This document shows, in pieces, positions 8,024 to 38,297 of a DNA stretch of 64,000 nucleotides; the first letter of the stretch is position 1, and each line of letters starts with the position of its first letter. The position numbers were made by a program, and so were the translations under genes. The notes under the pieces are model-generated. The model ran no database searches, was not told where the DNA came from, and was given only the letters and a program-made list of their open reading frames with translations. The stretch is from Escherichia phage AV126. The stretch lies in the sequence record OR352956.1. One strand, 5' to 3'.

Positions 8024-8024
8024 C

Positions 8025-8053: not shown

Positions 8054-8068
8054 AAAAAGGAGATACAA

Positions 8069-9116: not shown

Positions 9117-9150
9117 ACTCATTGGAATTAAGTTTCTAACAGGAGCATAA

Positions 9151-10524
9151 ATGGCAACTTTTCGTGAAAAGGTAGCAACCGTAACTTTACTGTATGGTGC
9201 TACATCAATTCGTGAAACCCAGTTCGATATTCCTCTGATCCTTACAGGTCAGAACGTAACTGGCGAAGCGATTCAATATTACTCTTCTTCCGATGCACTT
9301 TTGGAAGCAGGTTATGGATTAAATGATCCAGCGTATATTATGGCAGTCAAACTGTTTAACGGTTTGTTCCCACCAGATCAAGTCATGGTTGGTAAGCGTG
9401 AAGTTACAAACTTTACTCTAACTCCAATCGTAGAAGATAGTGCAACTTACACAATTACCATCAAAAATGGTACCAAGAAAAAAGAATTTAAATTCATTGC
9501 TGATGACACTGCAACTGCACAAGAGATTGTAGTTGGTCTTACTGAAATGATCAATGCAGATCTTGTTTATGGCTCACTGTTTACAGTAGCTAACAACGGC
9601 GCTGCAATGACTTTCACTCCAGTAGAAGGTAAGTTTGGTTCTATTGACAGCACAGGTTTCACTCAAGAAACTGTCTATGCTAATGCTATTACGGAAGATA
9701 TTGCTGCTCTGCATGATATTGATAGTAGCTGGTTCTGGACCCTTTCAGATTCCCATGAAACAGAAGATGTTCTAGCTTTGGCTGCATGGGTAGAAGAGAA
9801 TGATAAAGTTTACTTCTTCTCTAGCTCTGAACCTGGAATTAAAACGAAAGCAGAAGACAACGTTCTGGAACGACTGAATGACCTCGGTTATAATAACACT
9901 TGCTTTGCATTGTGGATGACCGATGCAGATTCTGTATTCCCAGAAGCAGCAGTTGTTGGTGCTATCTGTTCTCGTCAACCTGGTTTAACTACCCTTCACG
10001 GTAAAACACTGGTAGGTGTAGAGATCGAGAAACTAGATCAGACTTCGGAAAACAATATTGTTCAACAGAACGGTAACATCTATCGTAAAGAGCATGGAAC
10101 TCTGTTCTATCGTGATGGATTGATGGTTAGCGGTTTCTTTGTTGACTATGTTGTTCATGCTTTGTGGTTTAAAGCTCGCACAGAAGAATCACTGTTTACA
10201 CTGTTTAAACAACAGTCTATGCTGGGTGGTGGTGTTCGTGCTACTTCAAACGGTCTAGCTTTGATTCGACAAGCTGTTCTGGCTAACCCGATCCAAGTAG
10301 GTATCCTCAACGGTTCCATCGCTAATGAAGTTGTTACTTCTGAAGAGACTGGTTTGCGTGTCGATCTGAAACCTATTGTTTATATTCCTTCTCGTGCCGA
10401 TATGACCGATGCGCAAATCAATGCTCGTCTGGTTGATGGGATGAAGATTGAATATGTTTACGCTGGCTTCTTCCATTACGTTAAAGTTCAGGTCAACGTC
10501 CTGACTAACCGTACTGCAAACTAA
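9151..10524 (+). CDS. tail sheath protein
   Basis: 457 aa immediately upstream of 159 aa tube-like gene and chaperone/tape-measure block; synteny and size. Confidence 0.55.
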   Translation: MATFREKVATVTLLYGATSIRETQFDIPLILTGQNVTGEAIQYYSSSDALLEAGYGLNDPAYIMAVKLFNGLFPPDQVMVGKREVTNFTLTPIVEDSATYTITIKNGTKKKEFKFIADDTATAQEIVVGLTEMINADLVYGSLFTVANNGAAMTFTPVEGKFGSIDSTGFTQETVYANAITEDIAALHDIDSSWFWTLSDSHETEDVLALAAWVEENDKVYFFSSSEPGIKTKAEDNVLERLNDLGYNNTCFALWMTDADSVFPEAAVVGAICSRQPGLTTLHGKTLVGVEIEKLDQTSENNIVQQNGNIYRKEHGTLFYRDGLMVSGFFVDYVVHALWFKARTEESLFTLFKQQSMLGGGVRATSNGLALIRQAVLANPIQVGILNGSIANEVVTSEETGLRVDLKPIVYIPSRADMTDAQINARLVDGMKIEYVYAGFFHYVKVQVNVLTNRTAN

Positions 10525-13853: not shown

Positions 13854-13860
13854 TAAAATA

Positions 13861-13882
13861 CCTCGCTTCGGCGGGGTTTTTT
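13861..13882 (+). terminator. intrinsic terminator after tape measure gene (UUCG tetraloop)
   Basis: CCTCGC-TTCG-GCGGGG hairpin followed by TTTTTT. Confidence 0.75.
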
Positions 13883-13890
13883 CGTTTCCC

Positions 13891-13920
13891 TTGACACGAA
13901 GTTTCTATATGTGTTACAAT
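13891..13920 (+). promoter_or_regulatory. sigma70-like promoter, TTGACA-N18-TACAAT
   Basis: -35 at 13891-13896, -10 at 13915-13920, just after the terminator; followed by 5'-UTR hairpin GGAAGAT-cttgc-ATCTTCC (13931-13949). Confidence 0.5.
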
Positions 13921-17479: not shown

Positions 17480-17952
17480 TGGCAGATTTAACTACGATCA
17501 AAGTTTCTGATCTTACACAAACAACCTCTGTATCTGATACAGATTTCTTTGTAACAGATCAGGCTGGAATAACAAAGAAGACTTCTTTGAAAGTGCTGTT
17601 GAGTGGTGCAGGGGTAACTAGAAACCGTTTAAATGCACGGGGAACAGTAACTAGCACTTTGGCATTAGATATTAGTTCAGCAGAATATTTTTCGGCAACC
17701 TTATCTTCTGCAACGTGCACAATTAGTTTTACTAATATTCCAGTAGCAACGAATGCAGTTTTAAACTTTACTTTATCTTTGCGTCAAGGAAGTGGCGCAA
17801 ATAAAGTCGTATGGCCTTCTTCTGTAAAATGGAGTTTTGGTCGTTCCCCAGTTTTGAGTTATCGTCAAGGTGCAACAGACACTTTTGAGTTTATCAGTTA
17901 TGATAATGGTGCAACTTGGACAGGTAGCTTAGTTTTAGCAGGAGTTATTTAA
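17479..17952 (+). CDS. hypothetical baseplate/tail protein
   Basis: 157 aa, Ser/Thr-rich, start overlaps upstream stop. Confidence 0.45.
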   Translation: MADLTTIKVSDLTQTTSVSDTDFFVTDQAGITKKTSLKVLLSGAGVTRNRLNARGTVTSTLALDISSAEYFSATLSSATCTISFTNIPVATNAVLNFTLSLRQGSGANKVVWPSSVKWSFGRSPVLSYRQGATDTFEFISYDNGATWTGSLVLAGVI

Positions 17953-20828
17953 TGTCAAGAGTTAAGCACAATATTGACAACACGTTTCAGTTGATTGAAG
18001 GGTTGGTTCAGTTTCTGGAAAGAAATACTGGGCTTACTATAGATCCTACGGTTCAGCACTACATTATCAACCCACAAAACGTATTGGCGAACAACAGACA
18101 CTTTATTAACTGGACAGCGCAGGAAGGGCAACCAAACGGTGACGCTACTACCGAAGGTCAATCTGTGCTTATCACTGGTTTTGCTTATGCATATTTGGCT
18201 ACAGGGGATAAAAAATATCTTGAATCTGCCGAAAAGTATTGGCAAGCTTATATAGATGGCTTCTTCGGGGGCCAACCTATTCCTGATCCTCCGGCTAAAT
18301 ATCGTCCCAACTGGATCATCAATGGTAAAGAACCACGTTTAGCACATTACCCTCTCACAGACGATGGGTATCCTACGCACGGTGGGTTCAAAGGTAGCAT
18401 GATGACTTGGATTAACGGAAGAACTGTTATTCCTAAAGGTGCGCCACATTGGGGAGAATATTTAGATAAAGCTTGGTTTGCTTTCAATGGCAATCTTGGT
18501 TGGAACTCCGTTAACGCAACAGTTTATGCAATTAACCCAGACGGTTCAACCAACTGGAAAGAATATGGAGATCAGTGGGACGTTGAATGGATTATAGATC
18601 GTCTAGGACGTAAAGTTGATTGGGATGGTAACATTTTATCTACAGGTCACAGCTTTGCAGAATATGGAACAGTGCAACTTAAAAATGCTTCTGTGAACGG
18701 GGATTATAAATTCAACTATGCTACATGCAACCCTGTAGAACACGGTGGATATCTGCTTAAGCGTAATGAGATGTGGCATAACCGTCCTGTAAACGTTCCG
18801 GTAGAGTTAGGTTATCAAGATAATGCTTCCGATGCTGAAACGTGGTGGTGCGATGCAAACTACTTGATGTATCAGATCACAGGGGAGAGAAAATATTGGC
18901 TTTGCTGGCAATCTTCTTTATTGTTGTGTCAAGACTACTCAAACATTGATATGTTTGATAAATTCTTCCGTAGATCTACGACAGCGATAATTCCTTTTAC
19001 AGATGGTATATCTTATGATTACTCATATCCATCTACAGCAATACCTAAATACTCTCGTGACGAATTAGGCTACACAGTAATTCGCCAAGATGTTGCAGCC
19101 CAAACAACTCTAGAACAACAGGCAGTTTGGTTCAGAGTGGATCAGAATTCAAAACTGCGTATTGAGTTTCAAGGTGTAGATGATGCAGGGGAAGGTATTC
19201 TTTTCCGTCCAGAATTAGAATTAAGCAAGACTAAGAGTGAAACAGACACAGTGACATATCGTTGTGGCTTACCTCTTGGTGCAGCTAATATGACTAAGAT
19301 GGATATACCTTTATCTAGTTTTATGCGCACCGAACCTCCTGGAGGTGGTGTATATATTATTGCTGAACCTAGAATCATTGTTGACTGGGGAAGCAATACT
19401 GTGATACAATATAAATATGCAACTGGTATTGCTGGGACAAATAGTGATCAGATAGTTTCTGCTAATATGGATTCAGATGGTGGTTTTACTGTTGGGTTTT
19501 GGTTAACACCAACTAAAACAGCCAATTTAAAATCTATTACGTATCGTTCATACGCAGATGATTTTAACATCACTATTACGGATTCCGCAGGTTGGAGATG
19601 GTGGGCCATGTTAGAAAAAACAAATTCTACATGGGTTACTAAAGCTTTAAGTCCTGCTGATTTCAAATTAAGTACTTGGCAACCTAATCACGATGACACA
19701 GAGACAAAACCTTCGTCAATAAACCTGACTGCTATTGATCAGATCAATATTGCATTGGATTCTGAACCTGCAAATGGCTTGACGGGGGCAATCGATTTTT
19801 ATTGCGTTAACGATATCCCATCTTTGTATTCTTCAGCCACTGGTGATGATTACACAATGTATTTCAGGGTTACAGTTTCATCTGAAAATCCTTATACAGC
19901 AAAACTTGGAGATTGTACAATACTGGACTACAAACTTGACAGTTTGAATTATACTCCAGGAATCATTCCATTTTCTAATATTAGTGATCCTAACACAGCA
20001 TTATATGACGGTTGGCGCGGTATTCCTTACCCAGGTTATCAATACCCATCCTTATATTGTTTTAAAGGGAGAGATATTGATTGGGTTCGTATGAACAACA
20101 GTATAGACTTTTTATATGATTCACAAATGTGGTTTTATAATAAGTTTGCCCCTGTGATGCCTGGGCCAATGGCACAAGCTTATGTTTGGGATCGTTGGGA
20201 TGCTCATAAATACGGAAACAAGAATGAGTTCACAATGTATCATTGGAACGATAAAGCTTGGGATGGTTATGAAGCACGAGCATTCTTCTGTGCGTGTCAT
20301 ACAGTATACGAACTGAAACAACGAGGAGCAGAAGTTCCTGAAAAACTTTTAACAGTTTGTAAAAACTGGATCAACTATCTGAAGTGGTTCCAAGACAACA
20401 ACGAAGGAAGAACACCAACAATATTTTATCCCAATGGAGAAGTGGCAGCGCCTGTAGATGACTTTACAAGTCACATGTCTGCGCTCTTTATGGCAGGATG
20501 TGCTATAATGGGGATGGCTGGATATGATTCAGAAATTCCTAACATTAAAATAGTAGCAGACCGCTGTTTTGAACTTATTCAGGAAAATTATATTGTTCTT
20601 GGTCCTAATCATGTTATGAATGGCTGTTGGAGTTCCGCTCCTAGACCAGATAGTGATAACGGAGTCTTCTTTGGCTTCCACGCTGGAGAGTTGTTACGTG
20701 GTTTTGGGTTGTATGCTTTATACAAAAAACTTAATCCCCAAAATGCATTACCTGTTTTGGATTCGAGCAATATTCCTGCACTTACTGTTTTGACAATGGC
20801 AAACATTAGTGTGGACGTTACCGAGTAA
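17952..20828 (+). CDS. large tail-associated protein, possible glycan-hydrolase-like tailspike
   Basis: 958 aa, Trp/Tyr/Asn-rich; inserted between baseplate W-like and J-like genes; function inferred from position only. Confidence 0.3.
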   Translation: MSRVKHNIDNTFQLIEGLVQFLERNTGLTIDPTVQHYIINPQNVLANNRHFINWTAQEGQPNGDATTEGQSVLITGFAYAYLATGDKKYLESAEKYWQAYIDGFFGGQPIPDPPAKYRPNWIINGKEPRLAHYPLTDDGYPTHGGFKGSMMTWINGRTVIPKGAPHWGEYLDKAWFAFNGNLGWNSVNATVYAINPDGSTNWKEYGDQWDVEWIIDRLGRKVDWDGNILSTGHSFAEYGTVQLKNASVNGDYKFNYATCNPVEHGGYLLKRNEMWHNRPVNVPVELGYQDNASDAETWWCDANYLMYQITGERKYWLCWQSSLLLCQDYSNIDMFDKFFRRSTTAIIPFTDGISYDYSYPSTAIPKYSRDELGYTVIRQDVAAQTTLEQQAVWFRVDQNSKLRIEFQGVDDAGEGILFRPELELSKTKSETDTVTYRCGLPLGAANMTKMDIPLSSFMRTEPPGGGVYIIAEPRIIVDWGSNTVIQYKYATGIAGTNSDQIVSANMDSDGGFTVGFWLTPTKTANLKSITYRSYADDFNITITDSAGWRWWAMLEKTNSTWVTKALSPADFKLSTWQPNHDDTETKPSSINLTAIDQINIALDSEPANGLTGAIDFYCVNDIPSLYSSATGDDYTMYFRVTVSSENPYTAKLGDCTILDYKLDSLNYTPGIIPFSNISDPNTALYDGWRGIPYPGYQYPSLYCFKGRDIDWVRMNNSIDFLYDSQMWFYNKFAPVMPGPMAQAYVWDRWDAHKYGNKNEFTMYHWNDKAWDGYEARAFFCACHTVYELKQRGAEVPEKLLTVCKNWINYLKWFQDNNEGRTPTIFYPNGEVAAPVDDFTSHMSALFMAGCAIMGMAGYDSEIPNIKIVADRCFELIQENYIVLGPNHVMNGCWSSAPRPDSDNGVFFGFHAGELLRGFGLYALYKKLNPQNALPVLDSSNIPALTVLTMANISVDVTE

Positions 20829-20836
20829 GGGGTAAA

Positions 20837-22990
20837 ATGAAACAAGCTATATTTACTGTCACGCGAGACAAGAGAGTAAATGCGAGTTCATTTAACTACA
20901 CGACTGTTGATGGAACAGCAGTCGCTGGTAGAGATTATATTGCAAAATCGGGAACACTTGTGTTCCCTGATGATGCTGATTCTGCTACCATTGTGGTTGA
21001 AGTATTTGAACGACCAAAGAACTCAATAGATCTTAACTTCTCCCTCCAAGTTTCAGGGATTAGTCAAAATAACATGATGGTTGAAACGACCATCAATTGT
21101 ATTATAACTACGATCCAAGAAAATACTACTCCAATAACTTGGACTACAAAAGACGTTAAAATGTTCTCTCCTATGTATTGGACAATAGATTCTCAAGCAA
21201 CGGAAAGTTGTTCTATTGTATCTCATGGAGACTCTTTTACTGCAAGATTTGTAAACAGAACAACAGCAGGTTTGGCAGGGGTTATCTGGAGCACAGTTGA
21301 CAAATATGACCATAAAGGTGTTGGGTATTTACCCCACACAGATTTAAGTTCAGAGAAACTTTGGTTTAAAATGGAAATTAGTCAAAACATGCCAGGTTTT
21401 AAAGAAGAACCTTTGGTGCCAACTTTGACTGTAACTCTCTTGGATAAAAGTGTCCACTATGTTAGTTTAGGATTTTATGCTTCAGATATTTCAGAAGATG
21501 GTAAAACAGCTACAATCAAATTAGATTTTGGTAATATCTTTTCTGGTCCTAATAACGATATTCCTTTGGACATGAGTGCTGTAGATAATATTTTCTTCTC
21601 TTTGATTACAGCAAGGTATGAAGAAATAGAAGAGATTGTGCCTATTGATAGTCAAGAGGCTTGGTTTACTTTCACTCTCCTTGAACCTACTTCTGGTTAT
21701 AGCATCATGAAAGTCAGCAACCTTGTCCAGCCTGAACATGATATTCGTATGTGCACATCTTATGATGATATGTATAACCTGACTCCAGAGAGAGTTATTT
21801 ATAATACATATGCGCTAGGTTATCGTGGGATGATTAACCATTATAACGGAATGTCCCATTATTATGAGTTCTCATGGAATGGAACATCTTGGGCTTTAAA
21901 TAGATCTGTCTTCCTGAATCCTGCCACAGAAGCTTGGCTAAATAGTTTCCATTCTATAGCAAACGAGAAGGGCTACACAATAATGAACTCTTTAAGTTTT
22001 GAATTGATGAGCACAGTTTGTCCTGTAGAATGGGTCCAGCATGATTGGAACGATGCTCTTGCAGCAACAGGGTATGAACCTCCTAGTTATGTGTTGTCTC
22101 CAACTATTGACGAAGGTATGGAATATTTGCAAAATGTTATTAATAAAATAGCATCTATTTCGCAAGCTAATAATATTCCAGTTGTCATTCAAATTGGTGA
22201 GCCTTGGTGGTGGTATAATACAGCAAGTAAAATGCCTTGCATATATGATTACACTACCAAACTGGCATTCAACACAGAAACAGGTTTATTTGCACAAGAT
22301 GCAGGAACAATAGATAATTATAAAACAGGAACGCCGTTTGACGAATACTATGCATTTTTGTCTCGTAAACTAGGATTAAGAGTTACAAAGTTTGCAACAG
22401 ATACTAGAGCAACTTACCCAGGAGCCAAGGTAACATTGCTTCCGTTCTTGCCATCAATTATCGGCAACGGTTTGATGGAGTTTGTTAACTTCCCTAAAGA
22501 TTATTATATCCCAGAAAACTTCGACTTTTATTGTTCAGAATGTTATGACTGGTTGTTGGAAGGTAAGATGGAAAAATCTTTTGACGCTATCACAATACCT
22601 AATGAACAATTAGGTTTTAGTTATGATAAGATACATTATCTTGCAGGTTTTGTTCCAGATGCTACTCTTGCACCTTTGTATGGCTTTGATCCTAAATCAA
22701 ACTACCGCACATATCTTTGGAAGATGATTATAGGTAACATAGTGTTGAACGCCAATAAGTTTGACGGACTTACACAATATATATGGGCCTATCCTCAAAT
22801 AATGCATGATTCTATCACGGTAGTTAATTCTCAATCCCAAGTTTTCTATATGGGTAACGTGCCTTTGAACGTTTATTTACAGGATATCACTCTTAAACAG
22901 GTAAATGTTGAGATTGCCACCATAAGTGGAATTACATTAGCCACTAAATCTGGAGAAGATTTAGTAACAACACAAAAATTTTATATATAG
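20837..22990 (+). CDS. tail-associated protein with N-terminal Calx-beta-like domain
   Basis: N-terminus TVDGTAVAGRDYIAKSGTLVFPDDAD matches Calx-beta signature (DGTA..G.DY....GTL.F); 717 aa. Confidence 0.4.
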   Translation: MKQAIFTVTRDKRVNASSFNYTTVDGTAVAGRDYIAKSGTLVFPDDADSATIVVEVFERPKNSIDLNFSLQVSGISQNNMMVETTINCIITTIQENTTPITWTTKDVKMFSPMYWTIDSQATESCSIVSHGDSFTARFVNRTTAGLAGVIWSTVDKYDHKGVGYLPHTDLSSEKLWFKMEISQNMPGFKEEPLVPTLTVTLLDKSVHYVSLGFYASDISEDGKTATIKLDFGNIFSGPNNDIPLDMSAVDNIFFSLITARYEEIEEIVPIDSQEAWFTFTLLEPTSGYSIMKVSNLVQPEHDIRMCTSYDDMYNLTPERVIYNTYALGYRGMINHYNGMSHYYEFSWNGTSWALNRSVFLNPATEAWLNSFHSIANEKGYTIMNSLSFELMSTVCPVEWVQHDWNDALAATGYEPPSYVLSPTIDEGMEYLQNVINKIASISQANNIPVVIQIGEPWWWYNTASKMPCIYDYTTKLAFNTETGLFAQDAGTIDNYKTGTPFDEYYAFLSRKLGLRVTKFATDTRATYPGAKVTLLPFLPSIIGNGLMEFVNFPKDYYIPENFDFYCSECYDWLLEGKMEKSFDAITIPNEQLGFSYDKIHYLAGFVPDATLAPLYGFDPKSNYRTYLWKMIIGNIVLNANKFDGLTQYIWAYPQIMHDSITVVNSQSQVFYMGNVPLNVYLQDITLKQVNVEIATISGITLATKSGEDLVTTQKFYI

Positions 22991-22998
22991 GAGTAAAA

Positions 22999-25005
22999 AT
23001 GTCAACTACAATTACTAATTTACCCGAAACATCAAAAGTTAATGGTTCTGATTACCTGGTTTTAGACCAACCTGATAAGACTGTTAAAAGCACAGTTTCC
23101 AACTTTCTTAAAGTTGCTGGAATATACAAGCATTTCTCCTCTTTTTACGAGATGATTGCATCCACGGAGGAAGAGTTACCTGTAGATTCAGTATGCTCAA
23201 CCGGCGGCACAATGTGGGTTAGGTCTGCTACTCAGCCGGCATTAACATCCTTTACCCCTATAAGTGCGATTTGCGGAGATGATTTCGGCATAACCGCTGG
23301 AGGGTCTGTCCCTGGCCAGACCATATCTGATTTCCTAACTGTAGCTTACACATCTGGGTGCCGTGGGTACTTCAAGTCAGTCGGTGAAGTTACTGTAACC
23401 AGCAGTATAGAACTATTGTCGATTGATAAAAACTTAGTTGTTGATTGGTCTGGCATAAAGCTGTTCGGGGCCTCTGATGGGGTGGAAATGCACCTGTCAT
23501 CAACCGAGATTCAGTCTTCACTTCTTGCTGATATGGATCGTGGCTCTACAGTTGTGCGGGTGGCCGGGGCTGTAGAGGGTGATTTGATTTACATAGAGGA
23601 TAACGAGAAGTACGAGACTCAGTGGGGATTTAACTCCAGGGAGTTGTTTATTGCAGAGCGTGAGTCTGGTTCTGATATGAAAATTGATCGACCTTCCCTT
23701 TTCAGGCACTTGATCGCAAACAACGTTAAGGTGAACAGGTACAAACCAGTAAGGTTGATTTTCAACAACTTCAAGATGGAGCATTTCAATAACCGTGATA
23801 ACTCATCTTTTGTGAATGTAGGCTCCGTGTCATTCGGGACTTCATCTTCGTGGTTTCGCGGTTTTTATATGCCTGTTTTTTCTGGTGACGTGGAGACTAG
23901 CGGCGGTTCTTCATACTCATTGATAGCTTGCTACATGCCGAGGGTTGGTAATGTAGTTGCTAATAGGTGTCAATACCCTATTAGCCCAGCAGCAGGCACT
24001 TATGACACAGTTATTGAGAGCATCACAGCAACATTCTGCCGACATGCTGCCGCTCCAACAACTTGGTTCAATAAGTTTGAGGTTAAAAAGTGCTTCGGCT
24101 ACAACAACTTCGCCACGATGGACTCCCACGCGGGTTTTGATGCTAAATGGCGTAATGTGTTCGCAACGGAAGAACAAGACATGCCGAATATAAGATGCAT
24201 TGGTGGTGAGATTACCGATATCAATATAGTTGCCAGCTTAGGTACAACCCCTGCGGAAGACCCCCAGATAGGTCTCGTTACATTCACTGGTGATGCTTCT
24301 ATGTACAGAGATTGGATTGCCACTAATGTTACGCTCAATTATAAGAACCGAACCGATGATATTTTCGCATTACCATGGCAGGCTGATAATGTCTATTACG
24401 AAAATATTAACTGCATGGGGGGCTTTATTAGATGCGCAAACACAGCATCAAAAATAAAAACAGTAACATTAACAAACATCAATGCCAGCGTGAGACTGGT
24501 AGGTAACTGCGGAAATCTGAAAACATTAATAAACAACAGGGTAATTCCAGATGGTAGTTTCTACATGTATGAGAATGCACCGAACGCGAAGAGAACTACA
24601 TTATGGGAAGTTAACTGTGGGCATACTTCGGGGGCGTCTGCTAACAAAGTTTTAAAGATTTTTGATAACTATGGAACATCAGAATCACAAAACCTACTAG
24701 TAAAAGTTAAGTCGTGCTCTTCATATAATAACGGAGGATCCGTTGCTTATATTGAGAAGACGTACCTAGTAAATCATAAGCTCAGCGCGAACTCTTCCGC
24801 GTCGATATCAGGACCTGTGAATGAAACTCGCATAAACGGCGTGACAGATTCGGACATATCACTCAATGTAACATTAACTAATTCTGCGGGATACACACAG
24901 TCACCAGATATAAACGCGCATTTCTTTGAGCTAACTATAGCTACAGCCACAAGTAGACCGAATAACGTATTCGGTATAACTGTAGAGATATCAAAACTCA
25001 ATTGA
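22999..25005 (+). CDS. tailspike / receptor-binding protein (chimeric)
   Basis: 668 aa; AT-rich conserved-looking N-terminal anchor (MSTTITNLPETSKVNGSDYLVLDQ), then body with higher GC and different codon usage. Confidence 0.5.
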   Translation: MSTTITNLPETSKVNGSDYLVLDQPDKTVKSTVSNFLKVAGIYKHFSSFYEMIASTEEELPVDSVCSTGGTMWVRSATQPALTSFTPISAICGDDFGITAGGSVPGQTISDFLTVAYTSGCRGYFKSVGEVTVTSSIELLSIDKNLVVDWSGIKLFGASDGVEMHLSSTEIQSSLLADMDRGSTVVRVAGAVEGDLIYIEDNEKYETQWGFNSRELFIAERESGSDMKIDRPSLFRHLIANNVKVNRYKPVRLIFNNFKMEHFNNRDNSSFVNVGSVSFGTSSSWFRGFYMPVFSGDVETSGGSSYSLIACYMPRVGNVVANRCQYPISPAAGTYDTVIESITATFCRHAAAPTTWFNKFEVKKCFGYNNFATMDSHAGFDAKWRNVFATEEQDMPNIRCIGGEITDINIVASLGTTPAEDPQIGLVTFTGDASMYRDWIATNVTLNYKNRTDDIFALPWQADNVYYENINCMGGFIRCANTASKIKTVTLTNINASVRLVGNCGNLKTLINNRVIPDGSFYMYENAPNAKRTTLWEVNCGHTSGASANKVLKIFDNYGTSESQNLLVKVKSCSSYNNGGSVAYIEKTYLVNHKLSANSSASISGPVNETRINGVTDSDISLNVTLTNSAGYTQSPDINAHFFELTIATATSRPNNVFGITVEISKLN

Positions 25006-25026
25006 CACACCACAAATAAAAACTAG

Positions 25027-25042
25027 TCCTGCTTCGGCGGGG
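25027..25042 (+). terminator. UUCG-tetraloop hairpin after tailspike gene (no U-tract)
   Basis: CCTGC-TTCG-GCGGG, same motif family as terminator at 13861; followed by GTAATCATT. Confidence 0.3.
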
Positions 25043-25072
25043 TAATCATTGAGAATAACAATAGGAGTACAT

Positions 25073-25171
25073 ATGGAATCTCAACTCAGTCAACCTAAGC
25101 AGGTTATCAACGTCAAAGTGAACAAGCAGAGTATCGCTCATGATTTAAAAAGTAATGAGAACGCACTATGA
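25073..25171 (+). CDS. small hypothetical protein (32 aa)
   Basis: ATG 7 nt after AGGAG SD; stop overlaps next start (ATGA). Confidence 0.3.
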   Translation: MESQLSQPKQVINVKVNKQSIAHDLKSNENAL

Positions 25172-25410
25172 GAAAATTTTTAATAGGTATGTTCTGTACA
25201 TATCCTGATAATAAAGTCAGTTCTACTAAAGTCTGGAACGCTGTAGGCATGTCGGTTATGACAGGCATGTTTATCTTTTTAGGAATAGAAAAAGAAATTC
25301 CTGAATGGATGGGTTGGGCTTTTGTTTTCATGATAACCCCTTCTCGCCTCATGAAAAATCTTATTGATTTACGTTGGGGCAGATCACAATCTACCAAAGA
25401 GGATGACTAA
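25168..25410 (+). CDS. small membrane protein, holin-like topology
   Basis: 80 aa; two hydrophobic segments (VWNAVGMSVMTGMFIFLGI; WMGWAFVFMITP) and charged C-terminus (RWGRSQSTKEDD). Confidence 0.3.
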   Translation: MRKFLIGMFCTYPDNKVSSTKVWNAVGMSVMTGMFIFLGIEKEIPEWMGWAFVFMITPSRLMKNLIDLRWGRSQSTKEDD

Positions 25411-26897
25411 TGGACGAATATGGTTTGACAGATGCGGGATTTGTAATCCCGACTTTTGACGATGTTTTAAACAACTACATGACAGCAGTAAAAAACACAT
25501 TTGGTGCAGATGCAGCCACTTCGGAAGATACTGTGATCGGACAACTGTTTAGAATAATTGCATACACAGATTACACATTGTGGGAAGGTATGCAAGGGGT
25601 TTATAATACTCAAACACTGGATGGTGCAGAAGGTATTTATCTTGACGAAATCTTTTCTAAACGTGGTTTCTATCGAGCAGGGGCAGCAGCAAGTACAGGT
25701 TATGCATATGTTAAGAGTAATAACAAAGCAGCTTGGACTTATGAGCTAGGCACGGATATTTACTTCAACTCTGATAGTGATATGAACTACTATGTTAGCA
25801 CACCAACTATGTTGAATGCTAAGATTGCAGCTTATCAAATCTCTCGTGCTAATGCAACTGCTACAGGTGTTCCAAATATTACTTTTTATGCACAAAGTGC
25901 GGTAGACGGAGGACTAAACAGTAAAACACTTGCACCTGGTTCTTCTACATTTATAACAGATCTTGAAACTTTTATCAAGGCGAACTTAACAGAGGCTGAT
26001 CGTAGTCTTGTATTTTCTGATTCTGGTAACTTGTCAATTGGTTTTACTTCTTTAACCAGTGATACTCCAGTGGGATTAGTAACTCCTATCAAATTTTATG
26101 CTAGTGTTCCAGTTGGAACCAAATGGAGTGAAATTCCGGTAGTTGCAGCAGAGAAAGGATACAATCCGGTGGGTGTGGAGTCTATTACAGGGATATCTTC
26201 TACCTTTACAGGTTATCTTGATAGTGGTAACTTCTATTCGTTTTCTCCTGGTCGAGATGTTGAGACAGATGCAGAATTCCGCTCTCGTTTCAATGACAAC
26301 GTTGACGAAGCTAACGCAGGGACACGAGCAGCTATTGTGAAAGCTCTGTTACTTACAGATGGTGTTACTAAGGTGAAGATTTATGATAACCCTACGTTAC
26401 ATGATCAAGAACATGCTCCAGCTATGACTTTCCAGACTATAGTCTATGGAGGGAGTGCTGAAGAAGTTGCTGAAGTTATTTACAAAACTAAACCAATCAA
26501 CAGTTTGACACATGGAACAACTAATATAACTGTTACAACGGAAGACGGAGGACAAGAAATTATTCGTTTTTCTCCTGGTGCTTCTGCTACGTATTCCGTA
26601 AAACTTGTTTATCAAACTGTCAACGGAACAACTTTAAGTGGAACAGAAAAACAAAACATTGTAGAAGCTTTACAAAACCTGCAAGCTTACTTTGAATTAG
26701 GTTCTTCAGTAACGAACGATCAAATCAAAGGTGTTATTTATGCAGCACTTGCTTTTGGACGCTTGACTTCTCTTCGTGTTTATGTTAAACTTAATACTGA
26801 GGATGACAGTAAATATACAGAGAATAATATAGTTCCTGCTTATAATGTTGTCCCTTCTTTTGACCTTGATAACATTTCTTACGAGTATGGAGTGTAA
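25410..26897 (+). CDS. baseplate J-like protein
   Basis: 495 aa; LDGAEGIYLDEIFSKRGFYRAGAAASTGYAYV resembles the baseplate-J motif; followed by I-like gene and tail fibre. Confidence 0.45.
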   Translation: MDEYGLTDAGFVIPTFDDVLNNYMTAVKNTFGADAATSEDTVIGQLFRIIAYTDYTLWEGMQGVYNTQTLDGAEGIYLDEIFSKRGFYRAGAAASTGYAYVKSNNKAAWTYELGTDIYFNSDSDMNYYVSTPTMLNAKIAAYQISRANATATGVPNITFYAQSAVDGGLNSKTLAPGSSTFITDLETFIKANLTEADRSLVFSDSGNLSIGFTSLTSDTPVGLVTPIKFYASVPVGTKWSEIPVVAAEKGYNPVGVESITGISSTFTGYLDSGNFYSFSPGRDVETDAEFRSRFNDNVDEANAGTRAAIVKALLLTDGVTKVKIYDNPTLHDQEHAPAMTFQTIVYGGSAEEVAEVIYKTKPINSLTHGTTNITVTTEDGGQEIIRFSPGASATYSVKLVYQTVNGTTLSGTEKQNIVEALQNLQAYFELGSSVTNDQIKGVIYAALAFGRLTSLRVYVKLNTEDDSKYTENNIVPAYNVVPSFDLDNISYEYGV

Positions 26898-29494: not shown

Positions 29495-32400
29495 ATGGCA
29501 ACATTCCCAACATATCCAGCAACGTCTCTTGAACAGGGCGTAGATCTGGTTATTTTCTCGTCTAACCAACTCCATGATGTTATTAATGGAAGTGCTACAG
29601 AGAGTATTGAAACAGAATCAGGGTTGATACCAACCCTGAGAAAAGCCCTTGTTGACAACTTTTTCTTTAAAAGTCCATTAGATTGGGCGCAAGGCACAAA
29701 CGAAACAGTTTTTAACCAACTTCGTTATTTCCAGAACGGAGTGTTGAGTGGTTATTACTATGCGCCTAATGCTACGCTGGTAAACCCAATTCCTATGCAA
29801 GGGACTCCAGTAGGAGATAACAACTGGGTATTGTGGGGACTGAAGACAGAACAACTAGCAACAGAAGTCACCCCTTGGGTATATTCTGGTGCAACTGGTT
29901 ATGAAACAGTAATCAGTCCTCCCTACATCTTTGATAGTGCTATTGTTACAATCAATGGTGTTATTCAGGTTCTGGGAGAAGCTTTCCGCATAGAAGATAG
30001 TAAAATCATTTTATCTGAACCTTTGGGACATGATCCTGCAACAGGACTGCCAAACAAGCTTTTTGCCTATATTGGTAAAATCGTAGCTTCCGCAGATACA
30101 GATCCTAACTTAGAAAACCGTCTTGTCAGTTTAGAAACAAAAACTGAAGAACTGACAGAAAGCATGGATAAAGTACCTTTACAAACTATTGCTCGTAAAT
30201 ACGGTTTGTTGGATGACGAAGTAGCTTACGCAACAGCGGGTCAATCATTAACAGGGATTAAAGCTCTGTATGATCCGGTAGCACAATCTTCCTACACATT
30301 GCCTCCTAACATCACAGGGACTTTAACATCTTTGTCTGTTTCTGGAGTAATGACTTATTCTGGCGGATCTGTAGATCTTTCTGCATTAGCTGTTGAACGT
30401 GGACAGTTTGTTCATTTGCCTACAAGCTTTGGTAATAATGTAACTCTGACAGCTAAAAATCAGACGATTGGGCGTGGCGCTGGTCGCTATCGTTGGGCGG
30501 GAAGTTTACCAAAAAGTATTTTAGCTTCTGATACATTGGAAACAAGTGGTGGATTAGGTCCAAATGCATGGGTTCTAACTAATACAGAAGGACTGTTAAC
30601 CCCTCGTGGTGGAACATACAACGATTTATTCGATGTTGTCCACTTGTCAGAATTTGCTAACAATACAACTACATATACCACACCAGAAGCAGCTTTCCAG
30701 GCGGCACTGTTAGCAGCAAAAGCTTCGAAAAGTAAGATTCTCGACGCTTACGGTTGCGATATGACTTTCACGACAAGCTCTTTTGATATTCAAGATATCA
30801 CTTTGCGTGGGGGTGTGTTCCGTGGTCAACGCGACTATCGTGTGCAAAATGCTACAGTAGAAGGCACAACTTTCCGTAACTCTCGTGTTATGTATTGGGG
30901 TGGTGCTGTGCGCATGTTCGATTGTTTGTGGGACGGTGCTCCTCGCGCAGGTCAAGTTGGTAGCTTGGTATTCCAAGGCAACCCAATATCAGGTACTTTT
31001 GAAATTGATAATTGTACTTTTAAAAATGGGTTATATGGCATCCTTCAACAAGGAACAGGGGAACCAGTAACACGCGGTGTCTTCCGTAACCTTACCTTCA
31101 TGGACATGCAAGGTGATGCAATAGAACTGAACGTCATCAATAAACATTATGATGATGGTTGTGTGATTGAGAATATTTACCTGTCTAATATCGATGGGAC
31201 TAACGCTCCTATTCCTCTGTCCAACTGGGGTATCGGTATTGGTGTAGCTGGTAAAGGACCATATGGTTACGGAATCCCTGATGATCAATATTGCAAGAAT
31301 ATTACAATTCGTAACGTTTTTGCAAAACGTTGTCGTCAGATTGTCCACGTAGAAGTTGGCCGTAATATTTCTATCGAAAACATTCATGGCGATCCAGATC
31401 AAACTGTATCTGTTGGGACAGGTTTGGCAACTGGCGCAGTTGTAATGTATGGAAGTAAAGATTTTACGATTGATGGTGTTTACGGAGAGCCTAAAACAGA
31501 CGGTAGCACACTTGCAAGTAATATCCGTATGATTTATTTGGAGTGGGGAACTAACGCAGTTCTGGACGAAGAGGGCAATCCGGTAGTTCCGGCACAGGGC
31601 AGACCTTCAAACCCATGCTTTAACTATTCTGTTCGTAACATTCACACCAAAACTGGGCGTGTTTTTGCAGGAGTTTCCGCTGGGCCAGGTTATGAAAACA
31701 GAGTCAGCTTTGAGAATATCCGTTGTGCTGCGTTGCAGTTGTTCGGTGTAGCTTCTTGGCTTTCAATGTCTAACATCACCTGTAATATCTTTGATTGTGT
31801 TGGTCAACCTGAATCTGGTCCAGGGACATTTTATGATGGATTCTTCCGTAGAGAAAAATCTGTTCTTGAGATGGTTAACGTAAACTGTTACCCAGATGGC
31901 AAGACTATGGTTACTGGTCGTCCACAGTGGAGCCGTTGCCGTTACTCTGATATTCATCGTGTCAACTGTAATGTTGAAGCTAATATGTATACCAATATCG
32001 CAGGTGGTATTGGAGCTATTGTAGGGACAACTGGCAAAGTTTATTACTTAGAGCCTAACCCTAGCCGAAACATTGATGGGATGCATTTCCCAACAGGGAA
32101 GGAGTTTGACAAAGGGGATATGATAGTCAAAGCGGATAATACGTTCTTCCTTGTAACAACAAGTGGGGCATACATTCCAGATATCCCAGCTTTCGGTATT
32201 CGAGCTACACAGGCAGGAGATACCTTCCTGACACAGAACTTGACTCCTAACGGGACAGCAACAAACGCTTCTTGGTTGTATCACTATCCTCTGTCAGCAG
32301 GAACACGTATCCGTATTCCTGGTGCTGGTGTAGGTGGAGCAGATTTGGACACAGTTATTACTCGTGCACCTTATCAAGATAATGATACGTGGACTAACCC

Positions 32401-32548
32401 AGTTAAAATAGACATTGCAGATCCAATTGTAACGCCTACGAGTGCTGGAGTTAGAATCAAAACCATACCTAACGATTCTAGTAATGTTTCTGTAGGTAAT
32501 ACTGCGGTTATTCGCCCAACACCAGTGGTAGATGTGCCAACAACCTAA
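29495..32548 (+). CDS. tailspike protein with right-handed beta-helix (pectate-lyase-like) domain
   Basis: 1017 aa; central region with periodic Asn/Ile/Val/Gly repeats typical of parallel beta-helix (NITIRNVF, ISIENIHGD, VFRNLTFMDMQGDAIELNV). Confidence 0.5.
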   Translation: MATFPTYPATSLEQGVDLVIFSSNQLHDVINGSATESIETESGLIPTLRKALVDNFFFKSPLDWAQGTNETVFNQLRYFQNGVLSGYYYAPNATLVNPIPMQGTPVGDNNWVLWGLKTEQLATEVTPWVYSGATGYETVISPPYIFDSAIVTINGVIQVLGEAFRIEDSKIILSEPLGHDPATGLPNKLFAYIGKIVASADTDPNLENRLVSLETKTEELTESMDKVPLQTIARKYGLLDDEVAYATAGQSLTGIKALYDPVAQSSYTLPPNITGTLTSLSVSGVMTYSGGSVDLSALAVERGQFVHLPTSFGNNVTLTAKNQTIGRGAGRYRWAGSLPKSILASDTLETSGGLGPNAWVLTNTEGLLTPRGGTYNDLFDVVHLSEFANNTTTYTTPEAAFQAALLAAKASKSKILDAYGCDMTFTTSSFDIQDITLRGGVFRGQRDYRVQNATVEGTTFRNSRVMYWGGAVRMFDCLWDGAPRAGQVGSLVFQGNPISGTFEIDNCTFKNGLYGILQQGTGEPVTRGVFRNLTFMDMQGDAIELNVINKHYDDGCVIENIYLSNIDGTNAPIPLSNWGIGIGVAGKGPYGYGIPDDQYCKNITIRNVFAKRCRQIVHVEVGRNISIENIHGDPDQTVSVGTGLATGAVVMYGSKDFTIDGVYGEPKTDGSTLASNIRMIYLEWGTNAVLDEEGNPVVPAQGRPSNPCFNYSVRNIHTKTGRVFAGVSAGPGYENRVSFENIRCAALQLFGVASWLSMSNITCNIFDCVGQPESGPGTFYDGFFRREKSVLEMVNVNCYPDGKTMVTGRPQWSRCRYSDIHRVNCNVEANMYTNIAGGIGAIVGTTGKVYYLEPNPSRNIDGMHFPTGKEFDKGDMIVKADNTFFLVTTSGAYIPDIPAFGIRATQAGDTFLTQNLTPNGTATNASWLYHYPLSAGTRIRIPGAGVGGADLDTVITRAPYQDNDTWTNPVKIDIADPIVTPTSAGVRIKTIPNDSSNVSVGNTAVIRPTPVVDVPTT

Positions 32549-32557
32549 TGGAAATAG

Positions 32558-32585
32558 AGAGGGGGGATTCCCCCCTCTTCTTCCA
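32558..32585 (+). terminator. hairpin terminator after tailspike gene
   Basis: AGAGGGGGG-att-CCCCCCTCT 9 bp stem followed by TCTTCC. Confidence 0.5.
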
Positions 32586-32614
32586 ATAGAATGGTCTAAT
32601 AATAGGAGAGATAA

Positions 32615-34639
32615 ATGAATTTAACAAGACCTAATAGTGCGATAGCCGATCTGGTAGAAGCTACTTATCGAAAACGTCGCAGTTTTGAGGCAGGTTTTAC
32701 ATTACGTAATTCCCGTGAAGTTTTGCTGTTAGCGGCAGAAGGGAATTATTACCAATGGAAAGGAACTTTTCCTAAAGTAGTTCCAGCAAACTCTACGCCA
32801 GCCACCACAGGCGGTATTTCTTCCCTTGCATGGCAAAGTGTTGGGACCGCTGATGATATAGCAATTATCAATGCCAAGTTTACGGCAATGCAGCAACAGA
32901 TTGATGATCTGTCGGAAACAATACCTGAAGCTGGTAAATCGGCTTATCAGATCGCACTTGATAATGGTTTTGTTGGAACAGAAGCACAATGGCTTGCTTC
33001 TTTGAAAGGGGATACTGGTGCTCAACTTAATATTAAAGGATCGTTAGCAAGCACTAGTGAACTACCATCTACAGGTAACGTTGCAGGGGATGGTTATATC
33101 GTAGGCGATGTGATTTACGCTTGGGACGGTTCTGTTTGGAAACTTATTTCTTCTCTTGGACCAGAAGGGAAATCAGCTTACGAGGTATGGTTGGCAGATG
33201 GTAATACAGGATCTGTTTATGACTTTCTTGCCTCTATAAAAGGTGATAAAGGAGACGTTGGTCCTACAGGTCCACAGGGTGCACCTGGTGTCAACGCTAA
33301 TGGTTTTGATTACCGTGGAGATTTGCCTTCTACAAGTAACTTACCACAACCTAACTCTGAAAACGTAAGCCAAGCTTATTCTATTAATGGTAATCTTTAT
33401 GTCTCTAATGGGACAGCTTGGGTCAACATGGGTAATATTGTTGGTCCTCAAGGTCCACAAGGTGAGGCAGGTAAAGACGGTCTAGATGGAACAGATGGAG
33501 ACGAAGGGAAATCTGCATATCAAAGTTGGCTGGACGCTGGTAATGAAGGGACAGAAGTAGATTTTATTGCCTCGCTTAAAGGTCCAAAAGGAGACAAGGG
33601 AGAGCAAGGAGAACGAGGACCACAAGGCGAATTAGGTCCACAAGGACCAGTGGGTGCAACAGGATCAGGTTTAGAGATTATCGGGGTTCTGAACAGCGAA
33701 GCTGAACTTCCTCCGACTGGAGAAGTAGGTGACGCATATAAAATTAATAATGATTTGTATGTTTGGGTTCAAGATGCTACGGAATGGATGAATGTTGGTA
33801 GTCTTGGAGGAACATCAATTACAGCTAAAGGTCATGTTCCGAACAGTGAAGCTCTACCTGTTTACAATAACTATGGTGATGCCTACTTAACTGAAGACAC
33901 TAGTAATCTTTACATCTATACCTACGATCAAGACACCAATTCCGCATCTTTTGTTGACATGGGAAGTATTAAAGGCGACAAAGGTGAAAAAGGGGATAAA
34001 GGAGATAAGGGTGATCCTGGAACAAACGGAACCAACGGTACTGATGGGACCAACGGTAAGGACGGCGCACAGTGGTTTGTAGCAACAACTAATCCAGTCG
34101 CAGGAGACGGTGTTATCAATGATTACGCCTTCAATACTACCACTGGAGCAGTGTTTAAGAAAACAGATTCTTCTACGTGGACACTTATAGGAACTCTTCC
34201 TAGTATACCAGAAGCCCCTCAAGACGGCTTGACGTATGGTCGTTCTGATGGAAACTGGATCGAAATATCAGGATCAGATCCTACGGAAGCTATAACACCA
34301 ACTAGAGTTACAGCAGGTTTCATGGAACTTGAAACAACTACTACCAACTCTGGAGCATCTTGGACTCCTTCTGGAACTTCCAATATGTATGTTGTTACAG
34401 TAACTGACGCTCTGACAGTTGGAGCATGGCCTGGTGTCACTGGCTCTACAAAACCTAAAGCGTTTTCAGCAATGATTTATTTGATTCAAGATACAACGGG
34501 ACACACGGTTACACTAGATGCGTCTTATGGAGCACTAAATGATACAGAAATAGCAACTACTGCTAACGCAGTAACAATTTTGCAATTAACGTATCCTGGT
34601 GTGGGTGATATCGTGGACATGGTTGTTGTAACACGATAA
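32615..34639 (+). CDS. collagen-like repeat tail fibre protein
   Basis: 674 aa; four Gly-X-Y blocks alternating with repeated GKSAYQ...SLKG modules; own terminators on both sides. Confidence 0.65.
   Translation: MNLTRPNSAIADLVEATYRKRRSFEAGFTLRNSREVLLLAAEGNYYQWKGTFPKVVPANSTPATTGGISSLAWQSVGTADDIAIINAKFTAMQQQIDDLSETIPEAGKSAYQIALDNGFVGTEAQWLASLKGDTGAQLNIKGSLASTSELPSTGNVAGDGYIVGDVIYAWDGSVWKLISSLGPEGKSAYEVWLADGNTGSVYDFLASIKGDKGDVGPTGPQGAPGVNANGFDYRGDLPSTSNLPQPNSENVSQAYSINGNLYVSNGTAWVNMGNIVGPQGPQGEAGKDGLDGTDGDEGKSAYQSWLDAGNEGTEVDFIASLKGPKGDKGEQGERGPQGELGPQGPVGATGSGLEIIGVLNSEAELPPTGEVGDAYKINNDLYVWVQDATEWMNVGSLGGTSITAKGHVPNSEALPVYNNYGDAYLTEDTSNLYIYTYDQDTNSASFVDMGSIKGDKGEKGDKGDKGDPGTNGTNGTDGTNGKDGAQWFVATTNPVAGDGVINDYAFNTTTGAVFKKTDSSTWTLIGTLPSIPEAPQDGLTYGRSDGNWIEISGSDPTEAITPTRVTAGFMELETTTTNSGASWTPSGTSNMYVVTVTDALTVGAWPGVTGSTKPKAFSAMIYLIQDTTGHTVTLDASYGALNDTEIATTANAVTILQLTYPGVGDIVDMVVVTR
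33242..34066 (+). repeat. interrupted collagen-like Gly-X-Y triplet repeats (coding)
   Basis: Blocks at about 33242-33292, 33443-33511, 33581-33670, 33974-34066. Confidence 0.8.
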
Positions 34640-34642
34640 CAG

Positions 34643-34669
34643 AAGCCCCGAAAGGGGCTTTCTTTTTAT
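34643..34669 (+). terminator. intrinsic terminator after collagen-like gene
   Basis: AAGCCCC-gaaa-GGGGCTT hairpin followed by TCTTTTTAT. Confidence 0.75.
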
Positions 34670-34680
34670 GGAGGGTTTAA

Positions 34681-37353: not shown

Positions 37354-37355
37354 GA

Positions 37356-37385
37356 AAAGGAGCCATTTGGCTCCTTTCTTTTATA
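37356..37385. terminator. bidirectional terminator between convergent modules
   Basis: AAAGGAGCC-attt-GGCTCCTTT hairpin with T-rich flanks on both strands; between + strand stop (37353) and - strand ssb stop (37410). Confidence 0.7.
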
Positions 37386-37409
37386 AAAACTCTTTATAAA
37401 TCAATAAGA

Positions 37410-38297
37410 TCAGAACGGAATATCATCATCGAAGTCCATCGGAGGTTCTTCTTGATTACTTGGAGTTGGTTCTGGTTGTGGTTCAGGCTTTTTAACTTCT
37501 TTCTTCTCTTCTTTCTTAGGTTGTTCTGCGGAACCACGAATGGCAGCAGCAACTTTATCAGACAGAGCTAGAACTTTACGAGCAGAATCAATCAGATCTT
37601 CTACAGATACAGTCTTAATGGTATGGTCTTTACAAGCATTGAGGATAGCGTGACCAACAGATGCCCCAAGATCATAATCATTAATATCAACGCCACGAGA
37701 TTCAGCAATTTCAGATTTCAGCGTGACAGTTGCAGATTGAACAACCCCAGCGATATCGAAAGCATCGCCTTTAACACCATTACGAATCAGTTCCAGTGCA
37801 CCATTTACTGCGTGACCAGTTTCCAGACCTACAGTATCACGTTTTTTATAGGACTGTTTAGGAGCAGCATCGTTGGAACCTTTATTGCCAGAAGATTTGT
37901 TAGACTTCTGAACACCATCGGTAGACAATACTGTAATACGAGATTTTTTAGTATTGTAGTAAGTTTTACCGCCTTTATTATCAACGCGATCAATATCAAT
38001 ACTTACTTCTACACCTTTTTCAATAGTGATCCAGTTATCACCTTCTTTAACTTGCAGGTTTTCATAACCTTCTTTCAGTTCAATGTCACCAAGAGAAATC
38101 CAAACACCTTTCTCATCTGGTTTAGCACCTTTCTCTTTCAGAACAAGAGAAGCTCGGTGAGTTGAAACAATCGTTTTTCCTTCCCAATGAAAAGTTTTAG
38201 GTTCAGCGAATTTATCCAGTTTAACGTAGTCTACGATACCAGTTGCATAAGTTACGGTTTTGCCTTTACGATCAGTTTCAGTATTAATTACGGACAT
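37410..38297 (-). CDS. ssb: single-stranded DNA-binding protein
   Basis: 295 aa; AGAGGAG SD; Gly/Asn-rich linker and acidic tail ending MDFDDDIPF, identical to the E. coli SSB C-terminal tip. Confidence 0.85.
   Translation of the reverse strand: MSVINTETDRKGKTVTYATGIVDYVKLDKFAEPKTFHWEGKTIVSTHRASLVLKEKGAKPDEKGVWISLGDIELKEGYENLQVKEGDNWITIEKGVEVSIDIDRVDNKGGKTYYNTKKSRITVLSTDGVQKSNKSSGNKGSNDAAPKQSYKKRDTVGLETGHAVNGALELIRNGVKGDAFDIAGVVQSATVTLKSEIAESRGVDINDYDLGASVGHAILNACKDHTIKTVSVEDLIDSARKVLALSDKVAAAIRGSAEQPKKEEKKEVKKPEPQPEPTPSNQEEPPMDFDDDIPF

Follow-up and report, generated by a model that had tools for sequence, protein, structure and literature searches.

Phage tailspikes are modular proteins in which a conserved anchor carries an exchangeable body. 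For the myovirus phi92, a cryo-electron microscopy study (2026) placed the tailspike gp143 (EndoN92), by inference, at the distal part of the L-shaped fibre I, mounted on the baseplate wedge protein gp145 to which this fibre attaches (PMC13450770). The place taken by phi92 gp143 and by its phAPEC8 counterpart gp95 is described as that of an exchangeable polysaccharide-degrading spike at the fibre I tip (PMC13450770). In the Ackermannviridae, tail spike 3 (TSP3) of Agtrevirus has a 218-residue N-terminal region which ends in a PF18668-type domain and plugs into a branched tail spike complex (PMC11414711), and the PF18668 region was previously proposed as a recombination site of the tsp genes in this family (PMC10791037, PMC11414711). 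A receptor-binding domain shared by the Agtrevirus AV101 TSP4 and the spike found in the same slot of the Phapecoctavirus Ro121c4YLVW has also been published (PMC10791037, PMC11414711). A report on Klebsiella phage KP32 describes RBP2 docking peptides with the same design logic, a short conserved N-terminal peptide followed directly by a variable depolymerase (PMC13352976). Here we describe the tailspike gene of Escherichia phage AV126, an open reading frame (ORF) of exactly 22999 to 25005 on the plus strand, coding for 668 residues, in a 64,000-nucleotide stretch of record OR352956.1 (the window). An earlier note made from the sequence alone had presented this gene as a conserved AT-rich anchor of about 150 nt fused to a GC-richer, horizontally exchanged body and ending at a UUCG hairpin.

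On sequence grounds, the window comes from a myovirus of the phAPEC8/phi92 type (subfamily Stephanstirmvirinae) with a Phapecoctavirus-like genome. The flanks of the tailspike gene are 96-98% identical and colinear, on both sides, with those of the Phapecoctavirus phages phAPEC8, ESCO5 and Ro121c4YLVW (pairwise blastn). The gene order and lengths match phi92 gp141-gp147 (a 958-aa protein, a gp142-like protein, the tailspike ORF, a small membrane protein and a Baseplate_J wedge protein), and the ORF, lying between the gp142-like gene and the gp144 membrane-protein/gp145 wedge genes, therefore fills the slot of the gp143 endosialidase. The N-terminal peptide MSTTITNLPETSKVN.SDYLVLDQPDKTVKSTVSNFL is present as in phi92 gp143, and the 37 N-terminal residues are the same except for G16 in the window versus S16 in phi92. 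The bodies are unrelated, that of phi92 gp143 and phAPEC8 gp95 being an endosialidase beta-propeller with an S74 chaperone domain whereas that of the window is beta-helical and lyase-like.

Pairwise blastn comparisons with both parental types located the two breakpoints of the exchange. Colinearity with phAPEC8, ESCO5 and Ro121c4YLVW ends at 23110 and restarts at 25141-25173, and homology to the TSP3 locus of the Agtrevirus phages PC3 and RPN242 spans 23110 to 25042/25043. In the protein, the join lies at L37|K38, where MSTTITNLPETSKVNGSDYLVLDQPDKTVKSTVSNFL is followed by KVAGIYKHFSS..., i.e. TSP3 residue 219 onward. At most 1 nt of microhomology is found at the 5' junction; the CTGG that both parents have, 7 nt further downstream, is excluded as the crossover point. 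The Ackermannviridae TSP3 is characterized by TD1/TD2, of the PF18668 type, which bind XD3 of TSP2. As its alignment starts at TSP3 residue 219 and TD1/TD2 are absent, the window protein is not a TSP3 and is only the carrier of a TSP3 body.

The N-terminus and the remainder of the ORF have different sets of partners. In a megablast search of a collection of 50,697 phage records, 83 records matched ORF nt 1-112 at 95-100% nucleotide identity (100% with many), and only 4 matched the rest of the ORF beyond the anchor. One of the four, the Serratia phage KKP_3264 (Justusliebigvirus), is 97.9% identical over the whole ORF. The remaining three belong to Agtrevirus (Ackermannviridae): in PC3, PH4 and vB_EcoM-RPN242, the 849-aa "tail spike 3" matches ORF nt 112-2007 through its residues 219-849, with 90-92% DNA and 92-93% protein identity, stop codon and terminator stem included. 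A tblastn search of the body against all phage records returned the same four only, with no distant phage relatives in the collection. Among 5.8 billion proteins, 72 protein clusters share the anchor only and have unrelated bodies (endosialidase, pectate-lyase-like, SGNH hydrolase, GDPD, phosphodiester glycosidase and others), and six share the body only and have different N-termini. With 76-93% amino-acid identity, the body is joined to five or more further N-terminal anchors, found in Agtrevirus, in a T7-like podovirus and in other myoviruses. Contig look-up placed the copies of the body-only clusters in a tail fibre with a PF03906 N-terminus (the T7-like podovirus), behind a PF26208 N-terminus in another myovirus, and in a 136-kb phi92-like myovirus (Logan ERR13963354 contig, L010). 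Phages whose flanks are 96-98% identical to those of the window carry unrelated sequence at the position of the body. The body is under purifying selection, with a ratio of nonsynonymous to synonymous substitution rates (dN/dS) of 0.11-0.18 in every comparison, window versus KKP_3264 included. We conclude with high confidence that the gene combines a conserved anchor with a horizontally exchanged beta-helix tailspike body.

Base composition was the starting point of the earlier note, and its observation was confirmed. The first 150 nt of the ORF have a GC content of 0.333 and subsequent 150-nt intervals reach 0.49-0.51; the two GC-rich strings quoted from the body, CCGGCGGCAC and GTGCGGGTGGCCGGGGCTG, were both found, near 23202 and 23555. 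The 1-kb interval 23151-24150 (GC 0.464) is exceeded in the window only by the probable capsid gene. For the whole gene the excess is only modest (0.4285 versus 0.392 for the window, 94th percentile among equal-length segments) and the signal sits in the third codon positions. The GC content at these positions (GC3) is 0.422 for the whole ORF, the top value of 60 genes (mean 0.299, sd 0.047). The body has a GC of 0.434 and a GC3 of 273/631 = 0.433 against a background of 0.297 (binomial p = 6e-13), a significant difference from the other genes, equal-length chunks of which reach a maximum of 0.342. The anchor, with a GC of 0.333 and a GC3 of 0.243, is indistinguishable from the background. The likelihood change point of GC is 23158 (support 23088-23204) and that of GC3 is 23127 (support 23043-23202), and the homology junction 23109/23110 falls inside both intervals. 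Amino-acid composition was rejected as the cause of the shift, which lies in the third codon positions; the GC content at first positions (GC1) of the gene is below average. The proposal of an exchanged receptor-binding module behind a conserved anchor is thus supported, with corrections to the breakpoint and to the nature of the hairpin (see below): the anchor is indeed conserved but is 111 nt long (37 codons) instead of about 150 nt. Elsewhere in the window, the ORFs 5127-5525 and 5547-6548 have the highest overall GC (0.454 and 0.465, with a GC1 of ~0.58-0.62) and the second of them, which is probably the gene of the major capsid protein, ranks second in GC3 (0.41); the cause there looks like amino-acid or expression bias rather than foreign origin.

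The function of the body was approached through structure prediction. An AlphaFold2 monomer model, computed from a 33-sequence alignment, has a mean predicted local distance difference test score (pLDDT) of 84.2 and a predicted template modelling score of 0.73. Residues 1-39 are disordered in this model (anchor pLDDT <50), the remainder is almost wholly beta and the central domain adopts a predicted right-handed beta-helix fold. Among known structures, the modelled body comes closest to the LKA1 gp49 tailspike and to the K1, AP22 and K5 lyases. A Pfam scan of the ORF gave no family match and a single-protein sequence search of the PDB no match at E <= 1. Only with the 33-sequence profile did hmmsearch detect 9k4a (E = 1.6e-14) and 7w1c (E = 2.1e-11), and an hhalign comparison with the K1 lyase ORF34 gave a probability of 94.5% (E = 7.7e-8, 393 columns). 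Identity to the K1 lyase of Klebsiella phage NTUH-K2044-K1-1 (PDB 7W1C) and to gp49 of Pseudomonas phage LKA1 (4RU4) is only 12-15%, and the N-terminal attachment domains differ. In the hhalign alignment, the base Tyr311 of the K1 lyase is paired with Y326, Arg333/His334 of the -1 site with R348/H349, and the carboxylate neutraliser Arg397 with R399 (catalytic roles from PMC8822698). These residues of the window protein are invariant or at least 90% conserved in the 33-sequence alignment, relatives at 16-32% identity included. The body presumably binds and cuts a host surface polysaccharide (O-antigen or capsule), and we regard it as fairly probable that it does so as a metal-independent lyase, cleaving a uronic-acid-containing O-antigen or capsule by beta-elimination like the Klebsiella phage K1 lyase.

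Two results speak against this function. The catalytic acid His373 of the K1 lyase aligns with K383, and its equivalent is not conserved in register, an invariant H377 lying 6 residues upstream beside the same GFD motif; the lyase assignment is consequently incomplete. In addition, the body had no match in 5,426 complete E. coli genomes (blastn, distant mode), hence no prophage copy and no hint of a serotype. In the literature, nothing was found on the host O-antigens of PC3, PH4, RPN242 and KKP_3264; the hosts of the last two are E. coli M242 and Serratia fonticola KKP3084, respectively. The lack of an aligned conserved counterpart of His373 would also be expected if the body were a glycoside hydrolase, the main alternative, or a non-enzymatic binder, and five remote relatives match PF12708, a family including rhamnogalacturonase. 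Such a body nevertheless appears less likely to us, as conserved residues match the K1 lyase at its base (Tyr), its neutraliser (Arg) and its Arg-His pair and the only solved structures reached by the profile at E <1e-10 are a K1-capsule depolymerase and lyase. The family of the body is rare: of 1.84 billion representative proteins, 76 match it at E <= 1e-3, and no more than 3 of these at E <= 1e-30.

The body arose outside this genome and is part of a module that circulates among virulent enterobacterial phages of several families. In all six contexts its GC is 0.42-0.45 and its GC3 0.38-0.47. This GC3 corresponds to the genomic background only in Agtrevirus (0.39-0.405 versus 0.40), the background elsewhere being 0.24-0.30 in the myoviruses and 0.68 in the podovirus. 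An Agtrevirus-like donor is favoured, at somewhat better than even chances, because the composition fits and because the stop codon and the terminator stem of TSP3 lie within the imported tract. Such an origin is weakened by two points: composition is the main argument for the direction of transfer, and the synonymous divergence (dS) between the window and the Agtrevirus copies is 0.31-0.38, so that the transfer is an older one and may have come from a phage not yet sampled. The same dS leaves time for amelioration if the module arose outside Agtrevirus and Agtrevirus is another recipient, by reverse or third-party transfer. Compatible with such a transfer are also the six phage contexts, in which no copy is more than 96% identical to that of another lineage except for the window/KKP_3264 pair, and the GC of the Agtrevirus bodies (0.416-0.425), slightly under that of their flanks (0.43-0.44). 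It is considered rather improbable, since only in Agtrevirus does GC3 match the background and only there is the terminator complete (stem and U-tract), and since the relics of Ackermannviridae-type TSP N-termini downstream of the slot in several Stephanstirmvirinae show tandem-array import.

The direction of transfer and the order of the events are inferred, and the L010 contig bears on the order. It shares the 3' join of the window, i.e. the truncated terminator followed by AATCATTGAG..., the small ORF and the membrane and wedge genes, and it keeps a PF18668-type domain ending in ...AGTNPITGGY right before KVAG, in Agtrevirus-like DNA. A ...NP..GGY|KVAG-type boundary is found in all other carriers of the body. 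In the simplest reading, the body would have entered a phi92-like genome behind a PF18668 domain, an architecture that L010 still shows, and an in-frame deletion or illegitimate join would then have fused it directly to codon 37; we hold this two-step history to be as credible as not. As a third step, the whole cassette would have moved between Phapecoctavirus and Justusliebigvirus via homologous recombination in conserved flanks. The flanks of the window and KKP_3264 are only 58-84% identical, except for a conserved patch (92-95%) at 22494-22693, and the borders of the shared tract (Table 1) lie within the neighbouring genes, one at the 3' end of the gp142-like gene, the other at the 5' end of the gp144-like one. 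The high identity of the tract against diverged flanks indicates that the cassette was passed as a whole from one genus to the other by crossovers in these two conserved gene ends. The window and KKP_3264 differ by 46 substitutions with a dN/dS of 0.175 and both have the shortened architecture, which is maintained despite being atypical. Separately, we observed that L010 is without gp140-gp142 equivalents, its spike gene (8001-10439) standing directly after the sheath-initiator gene, that its N-terminal spike peptide is different but similarly patterned (MEVKVIDLPPADLVAGTDILLLEQNSGTKNTTVTKLISDLGL), and that its body is nearer to those of Agtrevirus (95.9%) than to that of the window (91.1%).

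Nearly all positions of residues 1-37 are invariant or at least 90% conserved in 73 protein clusters, and these residues are presumed to form the docking peptide that attaches the trimer to the fibre I baseplate scaffold. Candidate docking partners in the window are the equivalents of gp141 (17952-20828), gp142 and gp145, the gp142-like protein being a candidate scaffold arm of fibre I; the likeness to KP32 RBP2 is one of design. The 37-residue peptide may, as a tentative proposal, be a self-sufficient docking module and the shortest natural anchor in the subfamily. Several points qualify the attachment proposed here. Residues 38-51, (T/A)DTGVVLATQLKD, which are kept in 70 of the 72 other anchor-bearing clusters, are missing here and the protein turns to KVAGIYKHF at residue 38 in their place; the model is one of a monomer, not of the trimer; and the density of phi92 gp143 was assigned by inference and not modelled (PMC13450770). 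A break at residue 37/38 occurs in only 2 of the 73 anchor-bearing clusters, and in all other carriers a folded domain, of the PF18668 type or another, precedes the body, as would be the case if the fusion at codon 37 were a crippling accident leaving a decaying gene whose product cannot dock without residues 38-51 and PF18668. This is very unlikely in view of the intact ORF with its strong Shine-Dalgarno sequence, of the same architecture kept at the low dN/dS given above in two genera, between which the spread of the cassette suggests usefulness, and of the phAPEC8 and phi92 endosialidases, which are also without PF18668.

That the body is native, its GC reflecting amino-acid content or expression-linked codon bias, can be practically dismissed: resident genes can have a high GC3, as the probable capsid gene does (0.41 at a GC of 0.465), and the other tail fibre genes at 29.5-35 kb have a GC of 0.42-0.44, but the shift of the tailspike gene lies in third positions while GC1 is below average, it coincides with a homology breakpoint at a place where phages with nearly identical flanks have unrelated sequence, and the composition of the body stays constant in genomes with a GC3 of 0.24 to 0.68.

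The earlier note had also seen the gene end at a UUCG hairpin of the same motif family as the terminator at 13861. The likeness is real, 14 of 16 bases of the hairpin core being alike (CCTGCTTCGGCGGGGT versus CTCGCTTCGGCGGGGT), and the UUCG hairpin pattern has 3 matches versus 0.21 expected. The hairpin does not end the gene itself, as it begins 22 nt past the stop codon, and it is not a terminator. An intrinsic terminator is defined by a stable GC-rich stem-loop with an immediate U-tract. The stem here has a folding energy of only -8.1 kcal/mol (z = -0.57), is directly followed by GUAAUCAUUG, without a T-run, and was not called by a terminator scan that did call the hairpin at 13860. In PC3 and RPN242, the corresponding stems (-19.3 and -17.1 kcal/mol) are followed by a U-tract and are full terminators. 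The imported tract stops right after GCGGGG, at 25042/25043, and because the homology with the Agtrevirus TSP3 locus reaches this point, the hairpin belongs to the imported segment. Read from these alignments, it is a relic, the decayed terminator stem of a donor-type TSP3 which would have lost its U-tract at the 3' breakpoint. The view that it is a working terminator homologous to the hairpin at 13860 was rejected, the hairpin being by descent the Agtrevirus TSP3 stem minus the U-tract; the likeness between the two reflects the common design of a GC stem with a UUCG tetraloop, not a shared local origin. As for the other hairpin, 13860-13920 contains a canonical intrinsic terminator (ACCTCGC-TTCG-GCGGGGT and a T-run), directly followed by the best sigma-70-like promoter match of the scanned region (TTGACA, an 18-nt spacer and TACAAT with an extended TG; 11/12), both lying between a 662-aa ORF ending at 13853 and an ORF starting at 13980.

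Downstream of the hairpin, a 32-codon ORF codes for a product (MESQLSQPKQVINVKVNKQSIAHDLKSNENAL) with 43% identity to residues 1-30 of PC3 TSP3. This ORF is identical in the Justusliebigvirus JLBYU50, which has a different body, and is frameshifted in KKP_3264. At the same position, Ro121c4YLVW has a 102-aa ORF which is 65% identical to residues 1-92 of PC3 TSP3 (E = 2e-37) and ends in the same ...DLKSNENAL. In the record of that phage (vB_EcoM-Ro121c4YLVW; 6539-6847 of L007) it is annotated as a 102-aa 'tail protein' and corresponds to a truncated Ackermannviridae-type TSP N-terminus on the resident ...DLKSNENAL end; we take it for a probable pseudogene fragment and not for a tail protein. 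The ORF of the window is probably what is left of a gene that stood next in a tandem Ackermannviridae tsp array and came in with an earlier exchange. The published likeness of AV101 TSP4 to the Ro121c4YLVW spike agrees with such an import, TSP3 being the gene after TSP4 in the array. The truncated terminator and the TSP remnants of 32-102 codons in the slot suggest that pieces of tandem tsp clusters have been imported repeatedly across families, and such remnants might serve as landing pads for the next exchange. Taken jointly, a self-sufficient docking peptide of 37 residues, repeated import of tsp clusters and a landing-pad role form a combination that we put forward with reserve, as conceivable and not as probable.

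Table 1. Features of the tailspike locus in the window
Feature	Position	Strand	Description
gp142-like protein	20837..22990	+	Calx-beta and non-contractile-tail-sheath-type TIM barrel; Pfam PF23845, PF23844, PF03160; synteny with phi92 gp142
Cassette tract shared with Justusliebigvirus KKP_3264	~22894..25193	+	89-100% identity per 100-nt block (sliding profile)
Shine-Dalgarno sequence AGGAG	22989..22993	+	5 nt before ATG; overlaps stop codon of the gp142-like gene; read from sequence
N-terminal anchor	22999..23109	+	residues 1-37, MSTTITNLPETSKVNGSDYLVLDQPDKTVKSTVSNFL; AT-rich; conserved in phi92/phAPEC8-like phages
5' mosaic junction	23109..23110	+	codon 37 (Leu) to codon 38 (Lys); pairwise blastn versus both parental types
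Exchanged receptor-binding body	23110..25005	+	residues 38-668 and stop codon; right-handed parallel beta-helix, C-terminal beta-sandwich; predicted polysaccharide lyase
Predicted active-site stretch	23974..24195	+	Y326 23974-23976; R348-H349 24040-24045; H377 24127-24129; R399 24193-24195
UUCG stem-loop	25027..25042	+	UCCUGC-UUCG-GCGGGG; 6 pairs, 2 G-U; no U-tract; 22 nt after stop codon
32-codon ORF, putative relic	25073..25171	+	product MESQLSQPKQVINVKVNKQSIAHDLKSNENAL; own ribosome-binding site; end overlaps start of gp144-like membrane-protein gene
Baseplate wedge protein	25410..26897	+	Baseplate_J, phi92 gp145 equivalent; Pfam PF04865; synteny

Further downstream, the region 29495-37353 contains three more large genes of receptor-binding type: a 1017-aa gene with Tail_spike_N at aa 302-361, a 674-aa gene with Tail_spike_N and collagen repeats, and an 890-aa gene with RCC1-like and Big_2 domains. 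Their GC is raised (0.42-0.44) and their GC3 ordinary, judged from the one gene sampled, that of 1017 aa, where it does not exceed 0.33. At ~37350-37410, the sign of the GC skew flips and the coding strand changes from plus to minus near 37.4 kb; this switch is the border of the structural module with a leftward-transcribed module.

The tailspike of the window is a well-resolved further case of the published receptor-binding exchange between Agtrevirus and Phapecoctavirus, an ordinary module swap which leaves the current understanding of tailspike modularity unchanged. It differs from the AV101/Ro121c4YLVW exchange in that TSP3 and not TSP4 is concerned, the body is different and the fusion skips the PF18668 domain. 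It is modestly unusual by the direct fusion at residue 37 without linker or PF18668, by the truncated donor terminator and by the neighbouring relic of a TSP N-terminus. It documents a natural exchange of receptor-binding modules across Stephanstirmvirinae myoviruses, Ackermannviridae and a T7-like podovirus, with both breakpoints mapped to the nucleotide, and its body flags an uncharacterised family of probable polysaccharide lyases. If the 37-residue docking module is self-sufficient, a foreign beta-helix body could be plugged onto fibre I without a linker or adaptor domain. Residues 1-37 are suggested to be enough to mount a foreign depolymerase on phages of the phi92/phAPEC8 type, which are used in therapy cocktails against avian pathogenic E. 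coli (APEC), extended-spectrum beta-lactamase (ESBL)-producing E. coli and K1 E. coli.

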